From: a virus
Taxonomy: Duplodnaviria; Caudoviricetes
IMG/VR virus record: IMGVR_UViG_3300035208_003503
Coordinates: 484-64,483 of that record
Reading direction: 5' to 3' (one strand)
Length of the DNA stretch: 64,000 nucleotides
A program made the position numbers and the translations under genes. Numbering within the stretch: position 1 is the stretch's first letter; every line of letters starts with the position of its first letter. Shown here piece after piece: positions 3,900-53,067 of the stretch. A model generated the notes under the pieces. That model was given only the letters and a program-made list of their open reading frames with translations. It was not told the origin of the DNA and searched no databases.

Positions 3900-4141
3900 A
3901 ACAAACCATAGGAGAAAAAATGAAAAACTTAATAGAACTGATCCCTAAAGCTTCTTCCAACAATATTCAAACTTTAAAGGGTTTGGAAGAATGGGAGAGA
4001 AACCTTAACCTTACTTCAGATCTGATCGCTATCATAAACACTATGTCAATTAAAACGGACATGCATAAAGAAAATAGTCATAGGAAATTTGAAGTTGGGG
4101 ACCTGACACACTCCCAAACCTAAAGGGTTGGGCTTTCTTTT

Positions 4142-4522
4142 ATGAATTTTGTAAAAGATAGCTACGTAGCTGTTAGAGGGATTATAGTAGTAACCACCTT
4201 CGGATCCATACTTGTAGAATGGGATGCCCTGGAGAACTACTATAAATCTGAAAACACCGCCATTGCACTCGGAAATTTTAAAGAAGATCCTTTGACGTGC
4301 CCTTTTTGCTCCACGAATAAAAAACCAGTATCAACTTCAACCTCTACAGGAGATTTAGAACTTGAAATTTCAAAGCAAATGGAATGTCCTACTTGCAGCA
4401 AAAGCTGGATAGTTACCTATAAAATGTCTGGAGTTTCCTGGGCAGGTAATGACCACTGTCAAGGAGTCTCCCGTAAATATTTATTAGAGTACGACCCTAT
4501 GGGTAACAAGAAAGCAGATTAA
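4142..4522 (+). CDS. hypothetical zinc-ribbon protein
   Basis: CPFC...CPTC pair. Confidence 0.5.
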   Translation: MNFVKDSYVAVRGIIVVTTFGSILVEWDALENYYKSENTAIALGNFKEDPLTCPFCSTNKKPVSTSTSTGDLELEISKQMECPTCSKSWIVTYKMSGVSWAGNDHCQGVSRKYLLEYDPMGNKKAD

Positions 4523-5880: not shown

Positions 5881-6421
5881 GAGGTTAACATGGAAATTAA
5901 CTTACAAGCAGGGAATTACAACTTCAACGAGCACTTGGTCCTTGACAACGGCAATGTTAAAATAGCTGTAGTATTTGAAGCTTCTAGAGAAGAAGCGGTT
6001 GACTTTTTCCTTAACCAGGGCAACTACGAACACGAAGTCATACTGGACTTCGCAGAAGGAGTCCCCCTACCCAAGCTTACGAAATGCTTGAACACTACGC
6101 CAATAGACCTTACAAAATTCATAAAAGAAAGCCCAACCCTTTAGGTTTGGGAGTATGTCAGCTACTTACTATCACAAATAGAAATACTGGGGTAACCATG
6201 AAGATAACATTAGAAACTTGTGATCCCAAGTACGGGATCTGTGACCGCTGTGGTCAAAAGGTGCAGCTTAATAAGTTTCTGTTTGGAAGCTTACATATCT
6301 GCAATGAGAACAGCTGGGCTGCTATGGTCCACCGAACTCGAAAGGACGCTATTAAGAAACAAGCCGCAGGGTATACCGCAGCGTCTACTGCAGAACTTAT
6401 GAGCACACTTGGAGGTGGATC

Positions 6422-7805: not shown

Positions 7806-8410
7806 GAGAAGTAATGAAATACATTAAAAGAACAGAAACTGTAGACGCGTTCTGCCTAGGAACTGATCTCTACCCGTGGTGGTTCAGAATAGGGGTAGTT
7901 AATAAAACCATACGCCCACTTGAGGATATAGCCAACTCAGATCCTGAAGACGTTATGGCCACTATTGAAACCTGGTTCTTACAAAAGGGTGGGGACGGCA
8001 GTGCCTATGACATTGGGTTCACCGCCACTAATGGTGACTACCTTATCCATAGAGAGAACGAGGTAATAGAAGTAATGAACGCGAAAGAGTTCAAGGATCT
8101 TTATGTTCCTAAGACCTTTGGGGCTACCATAGACTTTACTTACATACCTTCACATATCAAAGATGATGAAGCTTGGGTCAAAGGACTTATAGGGGCGTCG
8201 TGGGTAACTAAGTTGAAACCAGGGTTGTTCAAAGTCCAATTCGGTAATGAAGAGCGTGTAAGGGAAGTCCCTTACATAGCTAAAGAAGATCTTACAGATC
8301 CCGACCCGGGGGAAGACCCAGCAGCGTCTACTCCCTTTCAAACAGGTTACGGAGAAAAGGTAAGAGAACGTGATAAGCCTGAGGCTAAAAAGAGATGGTG
8401 GTTATTTTAA
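7769..8410 (+). CDS. hypothetical phage protein (N-terminus resembles the 27544 ORF family); likely start near 7814
   Basis: YIKRTETVDAF...GDYLI...EFKDLY pattern; AGGAG SD before the internal ATG. Confidence 0.5.
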   Translation: MHLQFQGTNNRIGEVMKYIKRTETVDAFCLGTDLYPWWFRIGVVNKTIRPLEDIANSDPEDVMATIETWFLQKGGDGSAYDIGFTATNGDYLIHRENEVIEVMNAKEFKDLYVPKTFGATIDFTYIPSHIKDDEAWVKGLIGASWVTKLKPGLFKVQFGNEERVREVPYIAKEDLTDPDPGEDPAASTPFQTGYGEKVRERDKPEAKKRWWLF

Positions 8411-8464
8411 CTTAACATATCCGGGGATGGGTATCAAAAAAAAACAAACCGTTAACAAACTTAA

Positions 8465-9163
8465 ATGGAGATCCACATGGAAAAAATCAACAAGAATTTT
8501 ATTATCGGGGCACTCATCGTGCTCGCATTCCTGGCAATACTTTCGTTGCCGTACGTAGTAAGCTCCGGAGCTAAAGGAGCCATAGAAGGGGCATTCGCCA
8601 GTGATACGAAAGAGTACACTATAATGGACGAGCCGAACGAGGAAACCCCGGTGGGAATTGTAATGAAAGCTTTGAAGAGCTTAGACGAACCAAACACTTT
8701 GGCTACCTCATCCAAGTTAATACCCACTACAGAAGTAGCCAAACAATTTGCTGATAAATGCTTCTTATACTACACCAAAGAAGATAATGGCAGAATGGCA
8801 GAGAATTATAAACTGGATGGTAAAATGAGTGTTTCCGACTTTCAATTTAAAATGCAGGCTACATCCGACATGATACTAAGAAGGCTAATAGAGAGTGGGT
8901 ATACTCAACGTATCAACTGGCCTAATATAAAATTTCTAGGGTACACCTACGTAGAACCCGGTCCTTCAGTGGAATCGCATATGAGACTATATTTCGCGGA
9001 TCAAGGCCGTGTGTACAAAATTCATTTCAGAGCTATCTATATACAAAGTGGTGAAAAATTTCTAAGTGGCGCTTTCTTTGAAAGTGATGCCCACCTTGTG
9101 TCGATGGATGATGCAGGAGCAGCTAATATTAAATCATTCATCCGGCAACTGCTGGCTGATTAA
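8465..9163 (+). CDS. membrane-anchored protein with extracytoplasmic domain
   Basis: N-terminal hydrophobic helix FIIGALIVLAFLAILSLPYVV followed by a ~200-aa soluble domain. Confidence 0.6.
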   Translation: MEIHMEKINKNFIIGALIVLAFLAILSLPYVVSSGAKGAIEGAFASDTKEYTIMDEPNEETPVGIVMKALKSLDEPNTLATSSKLIPTTEVAKQFADKCFLYYTKEDNGRMAENYKLDGKMSVSDFQFKMQATSDMILRRLIESGYTQRINWPNIKFLGYTYVEPGPSVESHMRLYFADQGRVYKIHFRAIYIQSGEKFLSGAFFESDAHLVSMDDAGAANIKSFIRQLLAD

Positions 9164-9281
9164 TATATTTCCAAGTATGACAGGAGATCCTCAAAAGATC
9201 CCATCCCCGGAATCCCGGGGGTCTCCTGCCGTCAATACATCCTATAGATCTTTTTTTCTTTAAAGACTACCTTGTTTTTTT

Positions 9282-9320
9282 CGTCAAAATAAATGCGGAA
9301 TTGTGTTATAAGAATTTGAG
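9282..9320 (+). promoter_or_regulatory. conserved extended -10 promoter motif TGTGTTATAAG
   Basis: TCAAAATAAATGC-N-TGTGTTATAAGAATTTGAG; the same core recurs at 10041, 11355, 44831 and 52968, with variants at 12558, 17357, 53016 and 54593. Confidence 0.7.
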
Positions 9321-9556
9321 TATAGGGGATATTGACGGGGAGACCCAGGCCTCTATATATCTACTCTTGCCTAAATAGCTATGCCTGCTCCGAACAGGTA
9401 TGGTGGCAAGCTACCGTGTTAGCACGGAGAAGTGTTGCGTACACACATACTGAAGGGAGAGTTGTATTATCCAATAAGGGCCGGCTGGATAAGAAAACTC
9501 TTTGGGCTTTAACATTACTTATTAAGTTAAGTAGTGTAGGAAGTCAGTACGCCTTA
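9318..9556 (+). ncRNA. candidate structured ncRNA 1
   Basis: Begins right after the promoter motif; stems CCGTG/CACGG, TATCCA/TGGATA, AGAGTT/AACTCT, TACTGA/TCAGTA and ACATTACTTA/TAAGTAGTGT; the overlapping 76-aa ORF has a TTG start and no SD. Confidence 0.55.
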
Positions 9557-9568
9557 ATTTAATTTCAA

Positions 9569-9967
9569 ATGGAGGACGTTATGAAAGAAAGAATTGCAAG
9601 AATAAACAAGAAGCTGAAAAGTATTGGGCTTAGCCTTGTAACTGAGGATCTGATAATAGAAAAAGTAAAGGATAATGTCCACGACACTCTGTATATTTTA
9701 ACTCGTTTAAATCTCCCTAGTGAAATGGAAGACTGGCTTATAAGATATATGAGTGATGTATACAGAGATCTTGAATCTATCTATCACCAGTACCAGGACT
9801 TGCCCGAAGGGTGGGTGCTTAAAAACCCAAAAGAAGAAGAGAAGCTAGACAAAGAAACTTACCTGGAATTGGACCACGCTATTGAACTTTATAAATTGAG
9901 ACAGCGACAAACACCTATAGCTGAAAGCGTAGGCCTTAACCCAGAGTGGGACTTCTGGGCACCGTGA
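9569..9967 (+). CDS. hypothetical protein
   Basis: 132-aa ORF; GGAGG SD before the second ATG. Confidence 0.6.
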   Translation: MEDVMKERIARINKKLKSIGLSLVTEDLIIEKVKDNVHDTLYILTRLNLPSEMEDWLIRYMSDVYRDLESIYHQYQDLPEGWVLKNPKEEEKLDKETYLELDHAIELYKLRQRQTPIAESVGLNPEWDFWAP

Positions 9968-9971
9968 TGTA

Positions 9972-10008
9972 CACCCCCAACATCCGCATAGGCGTGAGGG
10001 GGTTTTTA
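9972..10008 (+). terminator. probable intrinsic terminator
   Basis: CCCCC...GGGGG followed by TTTTT immediately after the ORF stop. Confidence 0.45.
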
Positions 10009-10022
10009 TGTAATTTTTTTCT

Positions 10023-10060
10023 TCAAAATAAATGCAAAACTGTGTTATAAGAAATTGGAA
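10023..10060 (+). promoter_or_regulatory. second copy of the TGTGTTATAAG promoter
   Basis: TCAAAATAAATGCAAAACTGTGTTATAAG, near-identical to the copy at 9282. Confidence 0.7.
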
Positions 10061-10315
10061 TGATATTAACCTTTTAGGAGGTATAGACAGATTCCCGAGC
10101 CCCTTTCCCTAGGCACGTTAGAGTAGGTAGGGAATAGTCCAGAGCGGATGATAAGGCAGTAGCGGGTTAATGCTCTCAAAGCCTGGGAAGTATCCCTTAA
10201 TGCTGACACAATCTCACTGCACGTAAATCATACCTGTTAAGGCAAGGTGTGGAGATTCCTTGAACAGTGGAGTCTTAGTGGTGAGGGCCCCGGGGTAATG
10301 CCCGGGGTTAAGTCC
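10058..10315 (+). ncRNA. candidate structured ncRNA 2
   Basis: GC-enriched ORF-free stretch after the promoter; stems TTCCCT/AGGGAA, AGAGC/GCTCT, AATCTC/GAGATT, CCCGGG-N6-CCCGGG and ATTAACC/GGTTAAT. Confidence 0.5.
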
Positions 10316-10335
10316 TTATTATTATTAAACTTATA

Positions 10336-10770
10336 ATGGAGAATAAAATGAAAGAGAAAATTAAAAACAAAGCAGTAGCCACTCTCATCTACCTCGTAAT
10401 CTTTGCCGGTCCGATATTCCTCGTGATGTGTATTATGGCCTCAGTTTCCGGGTTTGTTCCCTCTTCCGAGGAAGCAGCTAACACTTTCGCGGGTCTCCTT
10501 CTCATAGGAGGATTCGGAACCTTCTGCACGATGAAGTACGTTCTGTACGTCGTCGGAGAGAAGGTAGGGCACATGGGATGCCTTGAATGGGTAACTGCTC
10601 AGGACCTCAAAAAAGGGAGTTTGATAGCCCTGGAAGAAGAGTACCTAGAAGTCCTTAGTATCAAAAAAAATGATACTAAGGTTACTGGGAAATATGAAGG
10701 ACTCGACGGAGTCCATGAATTTATGTTTAAAAATGAAGACAAGCTACAGGTTATAAAGGCCTGTAGTTAA
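10336..10770 (+). CDS. membrane protein (2 TM) with C-terminal KOW/SH3-like domain
   Basis: Two hydrophobic helices, then AQDLKKGSLIALEEEYLEVLSI. Confidence 0.55.
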   Translation: MENKMKEKIKNKAVATLIYLVIFAGPIFLVMCIMASVSGFVPSSEEAANTFAGLLLIGGFGTFCTMKYVLYVVGEKVGHMGCLEWVTAQDLKKGSLIALEEEYLEVLSIKKNDTKVTGKYEGLDGVHEFMFKNEDKLQVIKACS

Positions 10771-10774
10771 TAAC

Positions 10775-11125
10775 TGAAGACTAAGGACCAAGTCTATAAA
10801 CAAAGGTCAACCCCACCTCTTCCGGGACATCGGAAAGTGGGTCTGTGGTACCCTCCGGCGGGAGGATCTGCAGGGGCCAGTATGGTCCGAAGTTTAGAGC
10901 GCCCCGAGCTACGGGCGTTTGACACAGGGTGGTGGAGGGATAAACGGCGGCGTTAGCTCTTGCTTAGCAAGGATACGTCGGAACAGGTTGGTTGATCCTA
11001 TACATAGGTTTATCCTATAAAAAACAACAAATGGGAGGGTACTCTGTATGTCCACAGGGTCCCTGTCCTGGAGGTAGTGCCTTCTTCCGCATTGGAATCC
11101 GAAATTATAGTGACTAAATTTTAAA
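10775..11125 (+). ncRNA. candidate structured ncRNA 3
   Basis: GC-rich intergenic region; long-range GTACCCTCC (10848-10856)/GGAGGGTAC (11034-11042) helix extended by CTGTGG/CCACAG; local hairpins TTCCG/CGGAA, CGCCC/GGGCG and CTTG/CAAG. Confidence 0.55.
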
Positions 11126-11145
11126 AACAATTCATAGGTTGAACC

Positions 11146-11364
11146 ATGGATGTTTGGAAAAAAATAAAAAAAATCCCTGGTCGTAAAAGATATATGATGG
11201 CAGGGGATGAGGTAGTAGGAATAGTGACAATGGCAGCTACCTACGAAATAGAAGGTAGGTATGCGTCAGAAGACGAATACTGTATGCAACGGTACATAAA
11301 CAGAAGAATAAAGACGAAAGAGAAGTACCACAGTACTCAAAATAATCCCAAAAATGTGTTATAA
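11146..11364 (+). CDS. hypothetical protein
   Basis: 72-aa ORF; AGGT SD; its 3' end overlaps the next promoter motif. Confidence 0.45.
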   Translation: MDVWKKIKKIPGRKRYMMAGDEVVGIVTMAATYEIEGRYASEDEYCMQRYINRRIKTKEKYHSTQNNPKNVL

Positions 11365-11365
11365 G

Positions 11366-11795
11366 AATTTGAGGTAGAAACCGCTATACGCACTATAGTA
11401 TGGAACCTCCTTGACTATCTATGGAGTCTATACCCATAGAGGGTGCTACCCGGCATCTTTAAAAAAGGGGTGCGCTCATGGAGCGGGATCGACAAGTCTA
11501 TGAAGCTGATCACTTCAAGATGTTGTCCGGCATGCATCTTAAAAGGATGTGATGCAGATCGAATCCTAGGCTGAAGAGCGCCCCCACGTGGGGACGTGAC
11601 CTTTAGCGATCCAGTATAGCGGTGTTGCTATACCCGGTGAATCCCGGGACGAAATGTATACTGCGGGCACGTGCAGGTATATGTCTAGTCAGATTACCCA
11701 GGTTTAAATTGCTAGCTCCCCCGCTAGTAATGAGGGTTATATGGGGTGCCCCATGCGGGTAGCAGTTCCACCAGCGCCGGGTGGGACTGTGGTCC
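11366..11795 (+). ncRNA. candidate large structured ncRNA 4 (~430 nt)
   Basis: Follows TGTGTTATAAG at 11355; 10-bp long-range helix ACCGCTATAC (11380-11389)/GTATAGCGGT (11614-11623); nested GGATCG/CGATCC; many local hairpins; no ORF of 60 aa or more on either strand. Confidence 0.65.
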
Positions 11796-11901
11796 TATTA
11801 TTATCAGTATTTTATTTACATATTTTTTTGGAGATTACTATGATGAGATGAAATGTATCTGAGGTTAGGGCTAAAGCCCGTATCGTAAACAATAAAAATT
11901 T

Positions 11902-12495
11902 ATGGAGAGTTACATGGAAAAAGAAACCCCTGGGAAAGTGCCCTGGAGAGAGCATGCTATATTTGGATTTGATTCTGCTATGATATGCAAAGATCAAGAA
12001 CTGCTGCCAGCAGTGGCTGACGCAGTTGAATTGGTATATGATAAGGTTTTTGACGCATTTATCAAATGTGTAGACAAAGAAGGTGTAGCATCCAAAAACT
12101 TGAGCATAAAACCCTACGACGAAGAGGATGAAGAACTCCTAAAAAGAATTGTTGAAGGAGAAGAGGTTAAAACCCTATGGGTTATAGTGACCGCTAGCAG
12201 AGAATCAGCACTAAGGGAGCTTACAGTTGAATTGCTTGGGGGCCTGTCTAAAAAACTGTATAAAAAATATACAGTCGAGGACGCAGACCCCATGATAACA
12301 TTAAATGCAGGACTTAGGTTAAAGGGGGACCAGGTAACCTTAGACAGTTACAACCTTAACTTCTGCATCGTAATGGGTGGAGCAAAAATATTTGCTATTC
12401 TAGAGGAGGATAGCCCGCAGTATGCCAGCCTTAAAACCGTTTTAACCAACGTTAAAGAAGAGTTAGTAAAAAGGGAAAAAGAGAAGGCTGCCTAG
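11902..12495 (+). CDS. hypothetical protein
   Basis: 197-aa ORF followed by a terminator. Confidence 0.6.
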   Translation: MESYMEKETPGKVPWREHAIFGFDSAMICKDQELLPAVADAVELVYDKVFDAFIKCVDKEGVASKNLSIKPYDEEDEELLKRIVEGEEVKTLWVIVTASRESALRELTVELLGGLSKKLYKKYTVEDADPMITLNAGLRLKGDQVTLDSYNLNFCIVMGGAKIFAILEEDSPQYASLKTVLTNVKEELVKREKEKAA

Positions 12496-12509
12496 CTAAC
12501 AAAGTATAA

Positions 12510-12539
12510 AAGGGCCTTCGGGCCCTTGTTCTTTTTTTT
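12510..12539 (+). terminator. intrinsic terminator
   Basis: AAGGGCC-TTCG-GGCCCTT followed by a T-tract. Confidence 0.85.
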
Positions 12540-12568
12540 ACTTTCATACCCTTTTTCGTTATAAGTAT

Positions 12569-13219
12569 GTGGAGCTTTATTATTTTAAAAGAGGAAACAT
12601 TATGAGTCCAAGAATTTATCAAGACAACGAGGTTGAGAGTACTATGAAAGCCGGAGAACTCTTTCGTAGATTTATTACGGATCAAAAAGTAATAATAAAC
12701 CTGGAGCAGATTAACGAAGTTACCCTTGAAAGGTTTAAAAACCTTATGGAGGTGTTCTTTAATGACTCCATGGTACGCATGCGTAAAGACAGAGACACCG
12801 GTTTAGTAGAAGATCTTAAACCTGACGAGATCTTTGTATTCGGAAGTAACTTGTCAGGTCGCCATGGAAAAGGTGCAGCTAAGATGGCTATGAGGTGGGG
12901 AGCTAAATACGGGAAGGGTTCAGGCCCTCAGAATAGAACCTACGCTATACCCACAAAAACAGCTAACATCAAGAAGACCCTTGGACTCAATGAAATACGA
13001 AAGTATGTAGATGAGTTCATAGACTACGCTGAAAAACACCCGGAACAGACATTTCTGGTCACTGAGATAGGGTGCGGACTTGCAGGTCTTAGGCCTGATG
13101 ACGTAGGGCCTATGTTCTTACCTGCTGTTAGACATAAAAATATTAAACTCCCAAAACGCTTCTGGAAGGCTATCGAAAAAGACTGCCGCAAGCGCTTTGA
13201 TAAAATTCTTAAGAAGTAG
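12569..13219 (+). CDS. macrodomain-like phage protein (A1S_2505 family)
   Basis: IFVFGSNLSGRHGKGAA...YAIPTK...FLVTEIGCGLAG signature. Confidence 0.75.
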   Translation: MELYYFKRGNIMSPRIYQDNEVESTMKAGELFRRFITDQKVIINLEQINEVTLERFKNLMEVFFNDSMVRMRKDRDTGLVEDLKPDEIFVFGSNLSGRHGKGAAKMAMRWGAKYGKGSGPQNRTYAIPTKTANIKKTLGLNEIRKYVDEFIDYAEKHPEQTFLVTEIGCGLAGLRPDDVGPMFLPAVRHKNIKLPKRFWKAIEKDCRKRFDKILKK

Positions 13220-13227
13220 GAGGTATA

Positions 13228-13563
13228 ATGAGCATAGCTTACTTAAATCTTATAGGACTACTAGTCGCTCACTACGTGGGTGACTTTATATTCCAACCAC
13301 GCTTTATCGGCGATAACAAGTCGAAAAAACCTGAGATAATGGCTCTACACTGTTTGCTATACGCCTTACCATTCTGGTTATTATTTGGACCTGAAGTGGC
13401 CTTGGCAACTGGAGCTCTCCACTTCCCAGTGGACATGCTGTCGAGCCAGATTACTAGGATGCTTTACAAAGAAAAACAGTACTATGGGTTCTTCAGTATA
13501 ATAGGACTGGATCAATTGATGCACTACGTAGTGCTGATCTATACCCTGCACTTTATGCTGTAA
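13228..13563 (+). CDS. DUF3307-family membrane protein
   Basis: LVAHYVGDFIFQP...H..LY...HFPVD...GLDQLMH pattern. Confidence 0.75.
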   Translation: MSIAYLNLIGLLVAHYVGDFIFQPRFIGDNKSKKPEIMALHCLLYALPFWLLFGPEVALATGALHFPVDMLSSQITRMLYKEKQYYGFFSIIGLDQLMHYVVLIYTLHFML

Positions 13564-25390: not shown

Positions 25391-25514
25391 GGGCAGAGTA
25401 GCAGAAATGGTATATGCACGTCTAAGGACGGTTTATTTTGGTTCGAGTCCAAAGTAGTTATTCCTGGAATGCTACCAGGTGATAATGCGGGTTCAAGGCC
25501 CGCCTCTGCCCTCA
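25391..25514 (+). ncRNA. tRNA-like RNA with a non-canonical three-hairpin central domain
   Basis: Acceptor stem GGGCAGAG/CTCTGCCC, D-arm GCA-GAAATGGTATA-TGC, T-arm GCGGG-TTCAAGG-CCCGC; no canonical anticodon arm. Confidence 0.7.
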
Positions 25515-26099: not shown

Positions 26100-27197
26100 A
26101 TGACAGATGATAAAGAAGTTTGGAAAGATATCCCCGGGTATGATGGTAGGTATCAGGTGAGTAGCCTGGGGCGAGTAAGGAGTAACGCTAAATGTTCCCA
26201 AAACCCAGATGGGGCATGGGTATATAGAACAGTACAGGTAAAAAAGGTTTCAGGAAGAAGCTTTATAAACCTTAGGAAGCCTCATACCCGTGCTATAACT
26301 AGTTACCGAATAAATAATTTGGTAGCTGAAGCCTTTATACCTAATCCAACAGGAAGCTTAGAGATCAGACACATAGATGGTGATCTTTCAAATAATAAAG
26401 CCGCTAACCTTGAATGGGTTATTTTTGAAAGCCTTGAAGGTGAACTGTGGAAAGCCATTAAAGGCTTCGCTGGTAAGTATGAAGTAAGCACAAGGGGAAG
26501 AGTACGACTAAATAAGGGTAACCGATATAAGCTTGTTACCTGTAGAGACAACTCTTCATGTGTCACAGTAAATATTGGCAGAAGAGAGGATAGGTACGTA
26601 GTGAGTAGACTGGTAGCTAACGCATTCCTACCCCGGGTTAAAGGCAAACCCCTAGTAATCCATATAGATGGTAATCTCAAGAATAATAAAGTAAGTAACC
26701 TAAAATGGGACACCCCCAAATGTGAGATTATAACTCGTAAAAGTATGAAAACAAGGACTAAAAATAAAAGGCCTACAAGAGAAAGGCCAGTGTATCAGTA
26801 CACTCTTTCCTGGAATATAATAGCCACACATCCGTCAGTACAAGCCGCTGCCAGATCTCTTAAAATACATGCAAGTACTATAAGCGCTTGTTGTAGGGGT
26901 AAGTACGCGTCCTCAGGGGGCTATAGGTGGAAATACGTTACTGAATCATACCCAGGAGAGAAAACTGGGTATGTACCATTGCCGGTAGTAAGCATGGATA
27001 TTGATACAGGGGAGGCCTGTATGATATATAAGTCAATAGCACAAGCTTCTTATGATATTGGAAGAGAAGACAGTAGCAAGATCAGTGCTACGCTTACTAG
27101 AAATAAAGGGTGTGTATCTTACGGGTTAAGATGGAGGTATGCTACAGAAGAGGAGATAGAGCTGCTGGGAGAAAATAATCAGGTGTCTCTTAGTTAA
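26100..27197 (+). CDS. NUMOD4/HNH homing-endonuclease-like protein (2 modules plus NUMOD1-like C-terminus)
   Basis: WKDIPGYDGRYQVSSLGRVRS; HIDGDLSNNKAANLEW; HIDGNLKNNKVSNLKW; GGYRWKY. Confidence 0.9.
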   Translation: MTDDKEVWKDIPGYDGRYQVSSLGRVRSNAKCSQNPDGAWVYRTVQVKKVSGRSFINLRKPHTRAITSYRINNLVAEAFIPNPTGSLEIRHIDGDLSNNKAANLEWVIFESLEGELWKAIKGFAGKYEVSTRGRVRLNKGNRYKLVTCRDNSSCVTVNIGRREDRYVVSRLVANAFLPRVKGKPLVIHIDGNLKNNKVSNLKWDTPKCEIITRKSMKTRTKNKRPTRERPVYQYTLSWNIIATHPSVQAAARSLKIHASTISACCRGKYASSGGYRWKYVTESYPGEKTGYVPLPVVSMDIDTGEACMIYKSIAQASYDIGREDSSKISATLTRNKGCVSYGLRWRYATEEEIELLGENNQVSLS

Positions 27198-28787: not shown

Positions 28788-28970
28788 GGGGGAGTGGCGC
28801 AATTGGCAGACGCACATTAACTGGCACTATGACCAAAGTGGGAAACCGGGTTTATGAACAGACTGGCAGCTGGCGGAGCGAGGAGTAATTACCCAATACC
28901 TTCGATGATTGTCGTGCACAACCCGTCCCGGCGGGTGGCAATGCGGGTTCGAGTCCCGCCTCCCCCCACA
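28788..28970 (+). ncRNA. tRNA-like RNA with a ~125-nt insert replacing the anticodon/variable arms
   Basis: Acceptor GGGGGAG/CTCCCCC, class II-type D-arm GCG-CAATTGGCAGA-CGC, perfect T-arm GCGGG-TTCGAGT-CCCGC. Confidence 0.75.
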
Positions 28971-29466: not shown

Positions 29467-30732
29467 ATGTCTGATAATAAGAAAGAGATTTGGAAAGATA
29501 TAGCTGGTTATGATGGTAGGTATCAGGTTAGTAGTTTTGGGAGGGTTAGGAGTTGTAGATCGAATGAGTACCAAGTACTAAAGATAGCTACATTCAGCTA
29601 TGGTTCTAGTATATACTTGTATAATGGAGCCCTACAAGAGTTTCATATGATAGACCGCCTTGTTGCAGCTACTTTCCTGACCAAATCAAAAGAGTCTTGC
29701 AACTTAGTGCATGTTGACGGTAATATACACAACAACTGCGTAGATAACTTAAAATGGAATTTATTTAAGTCCCTACCAGGGGAGGTATGGGTTGACATAA
29801 AAGGTTATGGTGGCAAATACCAGGTTAGTAATTTTGGAAATGTTAGAAGTACCAGCCCTAAAGGCGACACACTTCTTATGAAAATTCCAGTTAGAAAAGG
29901 CAACCAGACCCAAATGATATCTCTTTTTAAGGAGGGTACGCATAAGAATCATGCTGTTACTGGTTTAGTTTCTGAAGCCTTTATGCCCCGACCTAAAGAC
30001 ATGTGCACCCTGCTCCATATTGATGGGGATAAGCATAATAACAGGGTAGATAACCTACACTGGGAGGATACTGAGATATACCCTGAAGAAGTATGGGTAG
30101 ACATAGTGGGGTATGAGAAGAGATACCAGGTGAGCGATAAAGGGAGGGTCAGATCTACTACGTCTAAGTATAGTAAAGGTTATAAAGTACTAGCCCAAAT
30201 GGCTGACAGCAGGGGTTATTTACAAGTAAGTTTTAAAAGGGAGGGTAAGCAGAAATCTTTTTCCGTGCATAGGTTTGTAGCGGAGGCTTTTCTTTTAAGA
30301 GAGAAGGGTAGAGACCAGGTGAATCATATAGATGAAGACCGTAGAAATAACTTTTTAAGTAATCTGGAATGGGTTACCTGTGCCGAGAACATGAATTATG
30401 GTAGCGGTAAAGATAGAACTAGGCTGGCTAAAGTTGTGTCAGGTGCTGCCCACCCAGTAGTTAAACTTAATTTAATAACTGAGGATTCCATTTTTTACTA
30501 TTGCTCAGCAGGGTTAGCTGCTAGTAGCGTTGATGATCATGTAGGCCATATAATTAAGTGCTGTAAAGGTAAGCGTAGTGATTGTAAAGGCTTCAAATGG
30601 CGCTATGCAACAGAAGAAGAAGTCAAAGCACTCATAGAGATATATGAGGCAGGTACCTACACAGATGAAGCCATACCGGCTGATCAGGTAATAGTCAATA
30701 AGGAGGACACTAATGCTAAAGAAGAACGTTGA
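29467..30732 (+). CDS. NUMOD4/HNH homing-endonuclease-like protein (3 modules plus NUMOD1-like C-terminus)
   Basis: Three W.DI.GY...YQVS..G.VRS motifs, each followed by an H.D....NN...NL.W motif; KGFKWRY. Confidence 0.9.
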   Translation: MSDNKKEIWKDIAGYDGRYQVSSFGRVRSCRSNEYQVLKIATFSYGSSIYLYNGALQEFHMIDRLVAATFLTKSKESCNLVHVDGNIHNNCVDNLKWNLFKSLPGEVWVDIKGYGGKYQVSNFGNVRSTSPKGDTLLMKIPVRKGNQTQMISLFKEGTHKNHAVTGLVSEAFMPRPKDMCTLLHIDGDKHNNRVDNLHWEDTEIYPEEVWVDIVGYEKRYQVSDKGRVRSTTSKYSKGYKVLAQMADSRGYLQVSFKREGKQKSFSVHRFVAEAFLLREKGRDQVNHIDEDRRNNFLSNLEWVTCAENMNYGSGKDRTRLAKVVSGAAHPVVKLNLITEDSIFYYCSAGLAASSVDDHVGHIIKCCKGKRSDCKGFKWRYATEEEVKALIEIYEAGTYTDEAIPADQVIVNKEDTNAKEER

Positions 30733-30975: not shown

Positions 30976-32094
30976 ATGGCAAGAAAGTTAGCAAGTATAC
31001 AGATCATAAATGCTATAGACCCTATTGAAGGGTATGACAGAGTAGAGCTGGCAACAGTTTTGGGTTGGAGTTGTATTGTAAAAAAGGATGAGTTCAAAGT
31101 GGGTGATACAGTAGTCTATATAGAACCTGATACTCAGCTACCGCCGCACAAGGCATGGGAATTTCTCGATAAAAGACGTTGGAGGGTTATGACCTTGAAG
31201 ATGTGTAAGACAGTGTCCCAAGGACTTATCCTCCCCTTGGAGATAATTAAAGAGGTTAACGCTAAGGCTAACTACAAAGTAGAAGAAGGTGAAGATCTTA
31301 CTGAGATACTCGAAGCTGAGCATTATGAAAAAGGCTCAACTGGGAAGGACAAGGATGAAACGTACCGGAAAAGAAATTTTGTTATGAAATGGCTGATGCA
31401 GTTCAGACTGTTTCGGGTAATATACCGTAGTATCTTTGGCAAAAAGGAAGCGGGTGGTTTCCCTACTCATTTAATGCCGAAGTCTGATGAAATAAACATC
31501 CAGGCTATGCCCAGTATTCTTACAAAAAACCTTGGGGAAGTGTTCTACATAACAGAGAAGCTTGAGGGTCAATGTGGTAACTACTTCTTAGATCCGTCTA
31601 AGAAAAAAAACAACTTCATAGTATGTTCCCATAACGTCAGAAAAGGTAAAAAACCAGATCATTCAAACTGGTGGGACATTGCGTTGAAAATGAACATTGA
31701 AAAGAAACTACGTAAGTATCTTAAGGATCATGGTATCCATCTCGGAGTTCAGGGTGAGATTATCGGGGGACGCATTCAAGGGAATATCTATAAGATAAAC
31801 GGCCTTGATTTTTATGTATTTAACATAAGAAATCTGAGTACTGGGGAAGACTATCCTCTCTGTGAAAAGCTTAAGGTGTGTGAAGAACTTGGTTTAAAGC
31901 ATGTCCCGGTACTGAATGATAACTTCATCATTACAGACGAGGTGACCCCCCAAAAGCTTCTGGCAATGTCCAATGGTAAGAGTGCGCTTAACAAGCACAC
32001 CTCTAGGGAAGGGTATGTCCTTAGAAGAGTAGACGCCGACAGGGTCTCTTTTAAAGTTAAGTCCCCACACTATTCTTTGAAAAATGCTAAATAG
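30976..32094 (+). CDS. RNA ligase (DRB0094/Rnl2-like, with N-terminal OB/tRNA-binding-like domain)
   Basis: N-terminal RKLASIQII..I.PI.GYDRVE; nucleotidyltransferase motifs TEKLEG, QGEIIG, FYVFNI, EGYVL and SFKVKS. Confidence 0.9.
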   Translation: MARKLASIQIINAIDPIEGYDRVELATVLGWSCIVKKDEFKVGDTVVYIEPDTQLPPHKAWEFLDKRRWRVMTLKMCKTVSQGLILPLEIIKEVNAKANYKVEEGEDLTEILEAEHYEKGSTGKDKDETYRKRNFVMKWLMQFRLFRVIYRSIFGKKEAGGFPTHLMPKSDEINIQAMPSILTKNLGEVFYITEKLEGQCGNYFLDPSKKKNNFIVCSHNVRKGKKPDHSNWWDIALKMNIEKKLRKYLKDHGIHLGVQGEIIGGRIQGNIYKINGLDFYVFNIRNLSTGEDYPLCEKLKVCEELGLKHVPVLNDNFIITDEVTPQKLLAMSNGKSALNKHTSREGYVLRRVDADRVSFKVKSPHYSLKNAK

Positions 32095-44800: not shown

Positions 44801-44878
44801 AAAAATATTAATCAAATTAATAAAGAAAACGTGTTATAAGAGTTTGTAGGATATTTAAACAACAATAAGGAGGATATT

Positions 44879-45220
44879 ATGCGTAGAACTACAAAAGAAC
44901 TCGAGACTGGTTTTCTTAACTTTATAAGGGGATTGAGTAATAACCTCAACCACCTTCATAAAGATATAAAAATCAGCTTCTCGTTCCTGGGAGATTTTAT
45001 TGAGCTGGAATCACCTGACCATAAGGTGAGTCTTAGCCCGGAAGATCTGGCCAGGCTCCTCGAACTTGATAGTGATTCATTTCTCACTAGGGCTATACAT
45101 ATAGCCTTCCGTGAGAAAGGGACCATAAGTTTCAAGGAAACGGAAGAGGGTTATAGTGACGTTTTCATAACTTGTGAAAAGTGTGAGAAGGTAACTGTAG
45201 CTCTTGATAGATTTGACTAA
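44879..45220 (+). CDS. hypothetical protein
   Basis: AAGGAGG SD; downstream of GTGTTATAAG. Confidence 0.6.
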   Translation: MRRTTKELETGFLNFIRGLSNNLNHLHKDIKISFSFLGDFIELESPDHKVSLSPEDLARLLELDSDSFLTRAIHIAFREKGTISFKETEEGYSDVFITCEKCEKVTVALDRFD

Positions 45221-45226
45221 CCTAAA

Positions 45227-45262
45227 ACGGGGGCTTCGGCCCCCTTTAAGTCCTTTTTTTTA
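45227..45262 (+). terminator. intrinsic terminator
   Basis: GGGGC-TTCG-GCCCC followed by T-runs. Confidence 0.8.
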
Positions 45263-45279
45263 TCAAAAACACGTCAAAA

Positions 45280-46080
45280 CGAATGACACAAATACCTAAT
45301 AGGAATCAAGACTCTTTAATCCTAATATTTTAGTGATTTTTTTTAGTAATACAAATTGTACCGATATTTGGTGTAACAAAATGTTACAGTAACAAAATGT
45401 TACAGTAGGTATACTGGAAAATAGGCGCGTAATGACACAAAACACTCCGAAATGTCATTTTCGTGTCATTCTAACCGGAAGTTAATAATTCAGTAAAACC
45501 AAATACTTAACTCTCTAATCTTAATTTATTAAATATTAAAAGTCACTATTCTTTAGTAATAATGTCATAATAAAAACATAATAAAAACAGTATCTTCCAG
45601 TCCCTAATGACGGTAGCGACATAAAAAGTTATAAAAGTTCACATACGAGAGAAACCTAATAAAATAGGTCTGCCTCGCACACGCACATATGTACATGTGA
45701 GTTTATAAGCGGTGTACATTCCGTCATTTTTTAGACGTTAGACAGGTTAACCTTTTAATTTAATTAGGATATCCCAATGACATGAAATGTCATTCTAATG
45801 ACGACTAAAACTTAACCTATTAAAATAGTTAAATAAAAACAATGACAAGGTGTTTGTCACCATTTTTCAGCTACTCCAGGATACTTACTTAATATATTTC
45901 TTATCTCTCACGCACCTGTACACACATAGGGTTTTTGAGGTGACAAATAGCATATTTTGAAACGTTAGACTAGATAACCTTTTGTATTATATGGGGATAT
46001 CTGGTGACACGATTCGTCATGTCTAATGTCAGATAAAACTTAAGTGCATAAAATTACTGAATAAGACTACATGTCATGAT
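45280..46080. repeat. AT-rich non-coding array of TGAC/GTCA palindromes with degenerate ~227-bp periodicity (origin/operator-like)
   Basis: AATGACA-N5-TGTCATT (45776-45794) and many TGACA/TGTCA half-sites; ACGTTAGAC at 45735 and 45962; TAAAACTTAA at 45806 and 46034; tandem GTAACAAAATGTTACA x2 (45373-45404). Confidence 0.75.
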
Positions 46081-46128
46081 CTTTTTATTTAAGCTGTATT
46101 TTACTTCAAATTTTTTTTATAAGTAAAC

Positions 46129-46157
46129 TTGACAAGGCCTTACACCTATAATATGAT
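46129..46157 (+). promoter_or_regulatory. near-consensus sigma70 promoter upstream of the tnpA-like gene
   Basis: TTGACA-N17-TATGAT. Confidence 0.75.
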
Positions 46158-46191
46158 AACTACGGTTTAGCTATTTATCTTGTGAAGAAAT

Positions 46192-52929: not shown

Positions 52930-52967
52930 TATGAATGGTGAGGGGTGTTACAAAAATAGCACAGATA

Positions 52968-53057
52968 TGTGTTATAAGAATTTGAGGATACCCCTCACAT
53001 TTTTTTCTCGATATTTGTTATAAGTATTCGAGGGGCATACCCCTCACATTTTTTTTC
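52968..53057 (+). promoter_or_regulatory. tandem duplicated promoter unit
   Basis: TGTTATAAG(A/T)ATT(T/C)GAGG...ATACCCCTCACATTTTTTTC twice in tandem. Confidence 0.65.
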
Positions 53058-53067
53058 GGAGGCAAGC

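Follow-up and report, generated by a model that had tools for sequence, protein, structure and literature searches.

Candidate long structured 5′ leaders in a promoter-driven, largely untranslated locus of an uncultivated phage

Phage genomes are tightly packed, and a locus that is about 60% untranslated, promoter-driven, and partly well folded stands out in them. Because of this tight packing, such a locus is a likely site of new RNA genes or of control, at the RNA level, over genes in host takeover. What, then, are the untranslated RNAs of the locus studied here, which belongs to an uncultivated phage from a groundwater/landfill source? Within the window, i.e., the whole 64,000-nt stretch of DNA that was analyzed, the non-coding share reached about 62% between positions 9164 and 11901, compared with about 13% overall. 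Intergenic gaps of 405, 368, 375, and 537 nt separate the called genes of this segment and hold four non-coding stretches on the + strand, namely, R1 (9319-9568), R2 (10058-10335), R3 (10771-11145), and R4 (11372 to 11815 or 11901). All ORFs inside these stretches had negative codon-usage scores (-0.11 to -0.32), while genes A to F scored 0.25 to 0.36, similar to the training genes. The four ORF-poor stretches reported in a preliminary description of the locus were thus borne out as four gaps within 2.7 kb that are non-coding by codon statistics, and the small genes interleaved with them look like genuine genes by the same measure. The GC enrichment that it also reported held only in part: the cores of R1 to R4 (0.43-0.50) exceed the ordinary short spacers of the phage (0.22-0.38), but coding DNA already stands at 0.418, and R3 alone peaks at 0.60.

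R1, R2, and R4 each begin directly after a conserved 44-nt block that corresponds to a sigma-70-type extended -10 promoter (TGnTATAAG), in agreement with the earlier observation that three of the stretches start behind the same promoter motif. The first block, P1 (9275-9318, +), carries a -35-like TCAAAA, a 17-nt spacer, and the extended -10 element TGtTATAAG at 9304-9312. P2 (10014-10057, +) is 89% identical to P1, and P3 (11328-11371, +) contains the stop codon of gene D; identity between copies is 89% and 68%. The core motif TGTGTTATAAG has exact + strand matches at 9302, 10041, and 11355, and allowing at most one mismatch gave seven matches where 1.8 were expected, a count reached by none of 100 shuffles. 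Other copies, at 44830 and 52968/53014, precede ordinary genes with short leaders (about 30 nt at 44830), suggesting that the block behaves as a promoter. Downstream of the promoter copies, folding of the + strand was strong, with a mean minimum window z of -2.87 versus -1.20 at random positions (P=0.0004).

Folding was next compared with shuffled sequences and with background windows of the same phage, which had a mean z of -0.84 and a standard deviation of 1.29 (260 nt) or 1.04 (444 nt). Windows with z<-2 made up 23% of the locus versus 3.4% elsewhere. Only R1 and R4 folded clearly and significantly better than both shuffles and phage background. R1 reached z -3.4 and -4.3 on the + strand (-0.9 on the - strand) and R4 reached -3.7 and -4.2 (-3.1 on the - strand), a value beyond all 22 size-matched 444-nt control windows; the ensemble diversity z was -2.1 for R1 and -2.05 for R4. 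In contrast, R2 (-2.0/-2.2) and R3 (-1.4/-1.6) are no more structured than ordinary coding sequence of the phage. The claim of many perfect stems therefore stands above chance for R1 and R4 and fails for R2 and R3, and the picture of four large structured non-coding RNAs is not supported. The long-range helices of that description (9-10 bp, perfect) are each near chance expectation, estimated at about 0.1 to 0.3 per element. R1 to R3 were more stable on the + than on the - strand, a preference that needs G-U pairs and thus points to RNA rather than DNA, while R4 was nearly equal on both strands.

A same-strand gene follows each of the four stretches. Genes B, C, and E carry strong Shine-Dalgarno sequences (SDs) 15 to 110 nt past the folded parts of their leaders, and the untranslated leaders measure about 262, 290, and 540 nt, respectively. 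R1 is a putative 250-nt untranslated leader of gene B (9581-9967, +; 128 aa, orphan, SD GGAGGA) with five high-probability hairpins, and neither the sequence nor a terminator scan revealed a canonical terminator between the two. A weak local hairpin (9552-9560/9567-9575) lies over the SD of gene B, with a predicted SD-occluding pairing P of 0.89; this pairing is short and may have arisen by chance. Gene B itself had a shuffle z of -2.2 and is followed by an intrinsic terminator (9973-10012, +), composed of CCCCC...GGGGG and a U-run, which gave a weak terminator-type Rfam alignment.

R2, a putative untranslated RNA of about 270 nt behind P2, has a 3′ domain (10147-10323) closed by a 10-bp helix. 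Its 3′ end consists of an all-GC hairpin of 7 to 9 bp (10286-10309) and UUAAGUCCUUAUUAUUAUU, located about 15 nt upstream of the SD of gene C (10348-10770, +; 140 aa, orphan, hydrophobic in its N-terminal half). R2 and R4 have a common 3′ module, a GC hairpin then GUCCU(U)AUUAUUAU, which R2 also has in common with the terminator at 45229-45263; on the + strand, the exact 10-mer TTAAGTCCTT follows no hairpins other than that of R2 and that of a bona fide terminator (45229-45244), and it occurs nowhere else. These modules resemble the phage's own terminators, which makes a discrete RNA possible for R2 and R4; their U-run is interrupted by an A, a consensus terminator scan made no call on them, and no antiterminator alternative was found for either stretch. 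Three strong hairpins occupy the last 130 nt of gene C (10644-10689, 10699-10714, and 10742-10768). R3 then follows as a G+C-rich spacer of 375 nt that separates genes C and D, has no promoter of its own, and contains four GGAGG motifs versus 0.6 expected. Gene D (11146-11364, +; 72 aa) is a called orphan with a weak SD.

R4 is a putative untranslated RNA of about 440 nt with nested domains at 11445-11763 and 11486-11612, ending in a 9-bp hairpin (11764-11788) followed by GGUCCUAUUAUUAU and a U-rich tail. About 100 further untranslated nt separate this end from gene E (11914-12495, +; 193 aa, orphan, SD GGAGAG), downstream of which lies a canonical terminator (12510-12527). A 5′ ACCUCC of R4 can pair with the SD of gene E, with a predicted SD-occluding pairing P of 0.98, although the pairing spans 500 nt and a complement of 4 to 7 nt is expected by chance. 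R4 also contains an anti-SD-like 8-mer, ACCUCCUU, at 11405-11412, which matches the complement of AAGGAGGT exactly; AAGGAGGT itself is present eight times in the window. Gene E may have a separate sigma-70-like promoter at 11815-11844; if it does, R4 would be an RNA in its own right and not a leader.

The reading that best accommodates these features, to which we give about an even chance, takes R1 as a plain leader, R2 and R4 as attenuator-type leaders, and R3 as an intercistronic spacer. Promoter blocks starting at 9275, 10014, and 11328 lie upstream and genes B, C, and E, with their SDs, lie downstream on the same strand. Since such genes with strong SDs follow the stretches, R1 lacks a terminator, and R3 lacks a promoter, leaders and a spacer are the parsimonious interpretation. 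By the same token, the proposal of a dedicated non-coding RNA locus is not supported, as every stretch runs into a same-strand gene. The locus would then comprise three small transcription units in a hypervariable region of orphan genes, each unit opening with a copy of the sigma-70-type extended -10 promoter, which the host RNA polymerase probably uses, presumably early in infection, and each producing an unusually long untranslated RNA before its small gene. R1 would be the 5′ leader of gene B, R3 the C-D spacer on the P2 transcript, and R2 and R4 would place a folded domain and a weakened copy of a phage terminator before the ribosome binding sites of genes C and E. These RNAs would act in cis, their folded 5′ domains stabilizing the transcripts and setting the access of RNA polymerase and ribosomes to the gene. 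Partial termination may occur at the R2 and R4 hairpins, with the remaining polymerases reading through, and ribosome binding sites may be occluded by the local hairpin over the SD of gene B in R1 and by ACCUCC against the SD of gene E in R4. We infer the transcription start sites of the three units and any regulatory input they receive, as well as early timing, termination, and read-through.

Searches for known families and relatives set the locus apart. Covariance models of Rfam 15, including GOLLD, ROOL, OLE, HEARO, raiA, RNase P, 6S, SRP, tmRNA, riboswitches, T-box, and group I/II introns, gave no match at gathering score over the whole window and so no known family for any of the four stretches. 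At E<=10, positions 9000-12100 yielded only chance-level alignments to NsiR1 (terminator-like, E 8.9) and snR30 (E 0.8), with 13 to 16 bits against thresholds of 39 to 80. ARAGORN found no tRNA or tmRNA at default settings and, when relaxed, only noise-level calls with 100- to 400-nt "introns" across the locus. The earlier statement that none of the stretches was recognized as a tRNA, tmRNA, RNase P, SRP, or standard riboswitch is consistent with these empty Rfam and ARAGORN results. Collection of homologues for R1, R3, and R4 returned only identical copies; the three other assemblies match this sequence at 100% identity across 8401-13300. Two sequencing runs are listed as containing the sequence, both recorded as DNA ("DNA?"), and no RNA run is listed. 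Comparison with phages and plasmids by blastn found no relatives of the locus, and a promoter-motif scan of viral contigs gave 36 single hits, none of which proved related in blastn or tblastx comparisons. The proteins of A, B, C, and E retrieved nothing but themselves in searches, PHROGs, Pfam, and NCBIfam were blank for genes A to E, and the ESM Atlas yielded nothing for gene B or E, for which single-sequence AlphaFold2 models were poor (pLDDT 55 and 36, respectively). The helicase of the phage, about 30% identical to that of any cultured phage, led to no related locus when used as a synteny anchor, and relatives of the neighboring gene at 12569-13219 exist but show no synteny. When the open frames of R1, R3, and R4 were treated as pseudo-proteins and scanned with six degenerate patterns per scan that tolerated third-base changes, viral, metagenome, and genome contigs yielded no relatives.

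Several specific identities were also considered and set aside. Paralogy among R1 to R4 rested on a single match of 23 nt at 74%, estimated to be at chance level. No GGA-loop signature of a CsrA-type sponge was present in the stretches, loops complementary to many phage mRNAs were not enriched, with only the anti-SD 8-mer of R4 standing out, and the locus contains no repeats of the kind expected for a tandem-repeat antitoxin RNA, a CRISPR-like array, or a diversity-generating retroelement (DGR). Likewise, ARAGORN made no credible call of tRNA-like elements in the locus.

A possible, though rather unlikely, alternative is that R2, R4, and perhaps R1 are free-standing, trans-acting non-coding RNA genes, serving as decoys, sponges, or scaffolds for host or phage factors, with the small genes as separate or co-expressed partners. 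R2 and R4 do each have a promoter in front, a body that folds, and a 3′ module resembling a terminator; R4, more stable than any other 444-nt stretch tested in the window, may be separated from gene E by a promoter and bears the 8-nt complement to AAGGAGGT; and the phage is RNA-oriented in other respects too, carrying an RNA ligase and tRNA-like genes with introns. However, no 3′ end separates R1 from gene B, R3 lacks a promoter, and the 3′ modules of R2 and R4 are weaker than true terminators. The absence of conservation in our searches, of an Rfam match, and of a GGA-loop signature, together with complementarity to phage mRNAs that is not enriched beyond the anti-SD-like 8-mer of R4, further argues against this alternative. 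A bolder version is slightly less probable still. It would make R4, and perhaps R1 and R2 as well, the founding members of new classes of structured phage RNAs that are stable, act in trans on host machinery or defenses, and are strongly expressed from an early promoter dedicated to them. In that case, R4 could titrate or mask SDs through an exposed 16S-like anti-SD ACCUCCUU, while another route would be to serve as decoys or scaffolds; the orphan proteins encoded next to them would be their partners. As a new RNA class, the locus is a candidate, not a demonstrated case.

We judge it similarly unlikely that the stretches are largely functionless spacer, either debris of cassette exchange at promoter/terminator repeats, resembling promoter-early stem-loop (PeSL) cassettes, or decayed genes, with folding incidental to G-rich composition. 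The orphan genes that make up the whole region are indeed bracketed by repeated terminator-promoter blocks, as in the PeSL shuffling of T4-type phages (PMC4122927, PMC2839356), the structure of R2 and R3 does not exceed background, and 3 of 40 ordinary 260-nt windows reached z<=-3.4. Yet the phage is 87% coding elsewhere, which makes 1.7 kb of junk within 2.7 kb unusual, and no residual coding signal was detected in any frame of the stretches. Their GC content at or above coding level, against 0.22-0.38 in ordinary spacers, the low-diversity ensembles of R1 and R4, the strand-specific stability, and the fact that structure follows the promoter copies all speak against mere spacer as well.

Elements acting at the DNA level, for example operators bound by a phage regulator, an origin of replication, or sites for recombination, are very improbable. 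Inverted repeats flank promoters, one of 18 nt around P1 (9229-9246/9321-9338) and one near the 52968/53014 copies (52943-52950/52990-52997), and the stability of R4 on the - strand comes close to that on the + strand, but the clear + preference of R1 to R3 and the lack of iterons or tandem repeats point away from such elements, and an origin would more plausibly lie in the AT-rich palindrome array of 971 nt at 45221-46191. Finally, unrecognized coding sequence in the form of small ORFs, recoded stops, or frameshifted genes can practically be dismissed despite a 76-codon open frame inside R1 (9332-9562) and a 9-codon ORF with a good SD in R3 (11048), given that codon scores are negative in all frames, no Pfam match was found at E<=0.01, reading TGA, TAG, or TAA as sense leaves the stretches closed while all three stops end confident genes in the window, and the gene caller of the ENA record left the stretches empty.

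What the locus means depends on which of these readings applies to R2 and R4. As attenuators, they would imply that the phage responds to as yet unknown signals early in infection; as free-standing RNAs, they would enlarge the short list of large phage non-coding RNAs. Practical value is limited for now, the phage being uncultivated and the locus without relatives.

Among known systems, HK022 put and lambda nut are cis-acting antiterminator RNAs found just downstream of early promoters, put being about 70 nt long with two defined stem-loops and nut a short boxA/boxB site. The likeness is one of position only, directly after early-type promoters and with terminator-like signals further along the transcript, and nothing comparable to the two stem-loops or to boxA/boxB was recognized in the locus. 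GOLLD (RF01998) and ROOL (RF03087) are large ornate phage-associated non-coding RNAs (PMC12286853) that similarly are phage-borne, hundreds of nt long, and predicted to fold into multiple domains. Unlike these, the present stretches are smaller (250-440 nt), lie away from tRNA-like genes, and have no homologue family, and neither covariance model matched the locus even at E<=10. PeSLs of T4-type phages place an SD and start codon directly after the promoter (PMC2839356, PMC4122927). The locus resembles them in its repeated terminator stem-loops and sigma-70-like early promoters around single orphan genes of a plastic region, with such composites formed by the terminator of gene B and P2 and by hairpins, a T-run, and P1; it differs in the 250 to 540 nt of folded RNA between promoter and gene, and the phage is not detectably T4-like. 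The attenuator leaders of Gram-positive-style operons, namely, riboswitch, T-box, and protein-dependent antitermination leaders, differ from R2 and R4 in that here the U-tract is broken by an A, no antiterminator was found, the controlled genes are orphans, no Rfam leader or riboswitch matches, and only identical copies are known. Nevertheless, R2 and R4 follow the same order of promoter, 200 to 450 nt of folded RNA, GC hairpin with a U-rich tail, and SD with gene, and the extended -10 promoters and strong GGAGG-type SDs of the locus fit Gram-positive-style expression.

The locus comprises small orphan genes alternating with four non-coding stretches. Five plus-strand genes (A, 8477-9163; B, 9581-9967; C, 10348-10770; D, 11146-11364; E, 11914-12495) were indicated concurrently by the ENA record gene calls and by a codon-usage test trained on 25 long genes, where their log-likelihoods (0.25-0.36) fell in the same range as those of the training genes. 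The gaps between them (405, 368, 375 and 537 nt) gave negative codon-usage scores for all ORFs and no Pfam matches, bearing out the preliminary description of four ORF-poor stretches. Recoded stop codons were rejected, as the gaps stay closed under every stop reassignment. Non-coding sequence accounts for about 62% of 9164-11901 versus about 13% of the window. At least nine genes (4571, 8465, 9569, 10336, 11902, 21247, 28994, 33601 and 33851) have in common the translation-initiation layout AUGGAG(R)-N5-6-AUG, which may represent a shared translational operator or just the phage's favoured ribosome-binding site (SD) context; an MKE(R/K)I protein start is common to genes B and C.

The exact motif TGTGTTATAAG occurs in three of the four gaps, as had been noted from the sequence, and can be read as an extended -10 element, TG-n-TATAAG, with TCAAAA 17 nt upstream of it. 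The motif forms part of 44-nt blocks (P1, 9275-9318; P2, 10014-10057; P3, 11328-11371), the first two of which are 89% identical. The motif also precedes ordinary genes with short leaders at 44830 and 52968/53014; it therefore acts like a promoter, and long leaders are a feature of this locus alone. The motif is absent from the 10 kb that precede the window. That region encodes a 369-aa protein (7968-9077 of the ENA contig L044, about 1-2 kb before the window start) that has sigma-70 region 4 and is possibly a phage sigma factor. At 52940-53060, one of the window's most stable spots (z -4.3), the motif occurs twice in tandem (52968, 53014); within about 10 nt, each copy leads into a hairpin made from the conserved initial transcribed GAGG (GAGGGG-CATA-CCCCTC after the second) and a U7-8 run. 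Upstream GTGAGGGG is also able to pair with CCCCTCAC across the first promoter. The arrangement is a promoter-into-terminator or a promoter within a terminator loop.

From P1, the stretch R1 (9319-9568) extends to the gene B SD without a terminator; gene B ends in a clear terminator, with P2 immediately after. R2 (10058-10335) closes with an all-GC hairpin and then UUAAGUCCUUAUUAUUAUU, some 15 nt ahead of the gene C SD. The exact 10-mer TTAAGTCCTT of this end has just one other plus-strand site, directly 3' of the hairpin in the terminator of ORF 44879-45220, the gene under the 44830 promoter (GGGGGC-UUCG-GCCCCC, then UUUAAGUCCUUUUUUUU). R4 (11372-11815) ends in a 9-bp hairpin and GGUCCUAUUAUUAU, and the gene E terminator carries the related GUUCUUUUUU. 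The phage's terminator module is thus present in R2 and R4 as copies with an A-interrupted U-run, a feature that would be expected of a leaky terminator. R3 (10771-11145) has no promoter and, on the transcript from P2, separates genes C and D. Local pairing is predicted to cover the SD of gene B, and ACCUCC at the R4 5' end is predicted to pair with the SD of gene E; both are suggestive only. We give an even chance to what best explains this layout, namely long structured 5' leaders, in which R1 would be a plain leader, R2 and R4 would be attenuator-type leaders and R3 would be a spacer. Free-standing non-coding RNA genes, more plausible for R4 than for R2, are an unlikely reading of these two stretches, which have their own promoters and terminator-like modules.

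Folding z-scores were computed against dinucleotide shuffles on both strands. Plus-strand values were -3.4 and -4.3 for R1, -2.0 and -2.2 for R2, -1.4 and -1.6 for R3, and -3.7 and -4.2 for R4, versus -0.9, -0.6, 0.0 and -3.1, respectively, on the minus strand. Evenly spaced 260-nt background windows (n = 40) averaged -0.84 (sd 1.29; 3 of 40 at or below -3.4), 444-nt windows (n = 22) averaged -0.84 (sd 1.04; minimum -3.16) and gene B itself scored -2.2, so that, for this genome, shuffle z-scores make folding look more significant than it is. Against these distributions, R4 lies beyond all size-matched controls and R1 in about the top 5%, both with unusually well-defined ensembles (z about -2.1). 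Folding of R2 and R3 is unremarkable, and the claim of four structured stretches therefore held for R1 and R4 only. A second, independent scan of the whole window (composition-regressed, 200-nt windows) placed 3 of the 14 most structured plus-strand clusters in the locus (9051-9550, 10151-10350 and 10501-10900, the last mostly within the 3' end of gene C), with z < -2 in 23% of its windows versus 3.4% elsewhere. RNA structure goes along with promoter copies: mean minimum z just 3' of five promoter sites was -2.87 versus -1.20 at random sites (P = 0.0004). Within its final 130 nt, gene C holds three strong hairpins (10644-10768: a perfect 11-bp one at 10653-10681, another at 10699-10714 and a further 11-bp one, at 10742-10768, up to the stop codon), which with the start of R3 form the window's second most stable region. 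The most stable plus-strand region (44851-45300, z -4.8) covers the 113-aa ORF 44879-45220, whose codon statistics are normal (0.31).

R1-R4 matched no Rfam family at gathering score or even at E ≤ 10, and no tRNA or tmRNA was found in these stretches, in line with the initial failure to recognise any tRNA, tmRNA, RNase P, SRP or standard riboswitch. The four stretches are not paralogous. Proteins A, B, C and E returned only self-matches among 5.8-15 billion proteins, and neither DNA searches nor degenerate-pattern scans using open frames of R1, R3 and R4 gave any match in viral, metagenome or genome collections; every other copy of the sequence is 100% identical. The locus is thus unmatched in the databases searched. 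The first gene beyond it with relatives (12569-13219; phrog_2072/NCBIfam A1S_2505 family phage non-structural protein) has homologues of 45-62% identity on two unrelated viral contigs, without synteny.

The source is a 64.5-kb IMG/VR viral contig (estimated completeness 42%), found identically in the 80.7-kb ENA contig, in a Logan assembly and in a JGI metagenome; DNA runs containing the sequence came from groundwater and landfill. Among cultured phages, this phage has no close relative: its UvrD-type helicase shares about 30% identity with the best phage matches. Other recognisable window genes encode a dGTP pyrophosphohydrolase-like protein, two HNH homing endonucleases (26100-27197, 29467-30732), an Rnl1-type RNA ligase (30976-32094), a large terminase and a tape-measure protein. 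Relaxed ARAGORN thresholds that permit introns yielded two calls: a tRNA-Leu(AAG) containing a 48-nt insert (25391-25513) and a tRNA-like gene whose insert is 89 nt (28788-28967). Neither is called at default settings, and each is 600-700 nt upstream of an HNH gene. An IS605-type TnpA/TnpB pair (Y1_Tnp and Cas12f1-like_TNB; L044 3278-4688) lies upstream of the window; a 43-52-nt sequence forms an inverted pair 2 kb apart (window 4103-4154 and 6110-6161), with a third copy (L044 3147-3189) just upstream of this IS200/IS605 pair.

Taken together, these results describe a real and unusual non-coding locus, in which R1 and R4 are good structured-RNA candidates and R2 and R3 weak ones. The main null reading, that the stretches are functionless remains of cassette shuffling at repeated terminator-promoter blocks, fits R2 and R3 better but R1 and R4 more poorly, and we consider it improbable for the locus. 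Such shuffling is described for the promoter-early stem-loops (PeSLs) of T4-type phages (PMC4122927).
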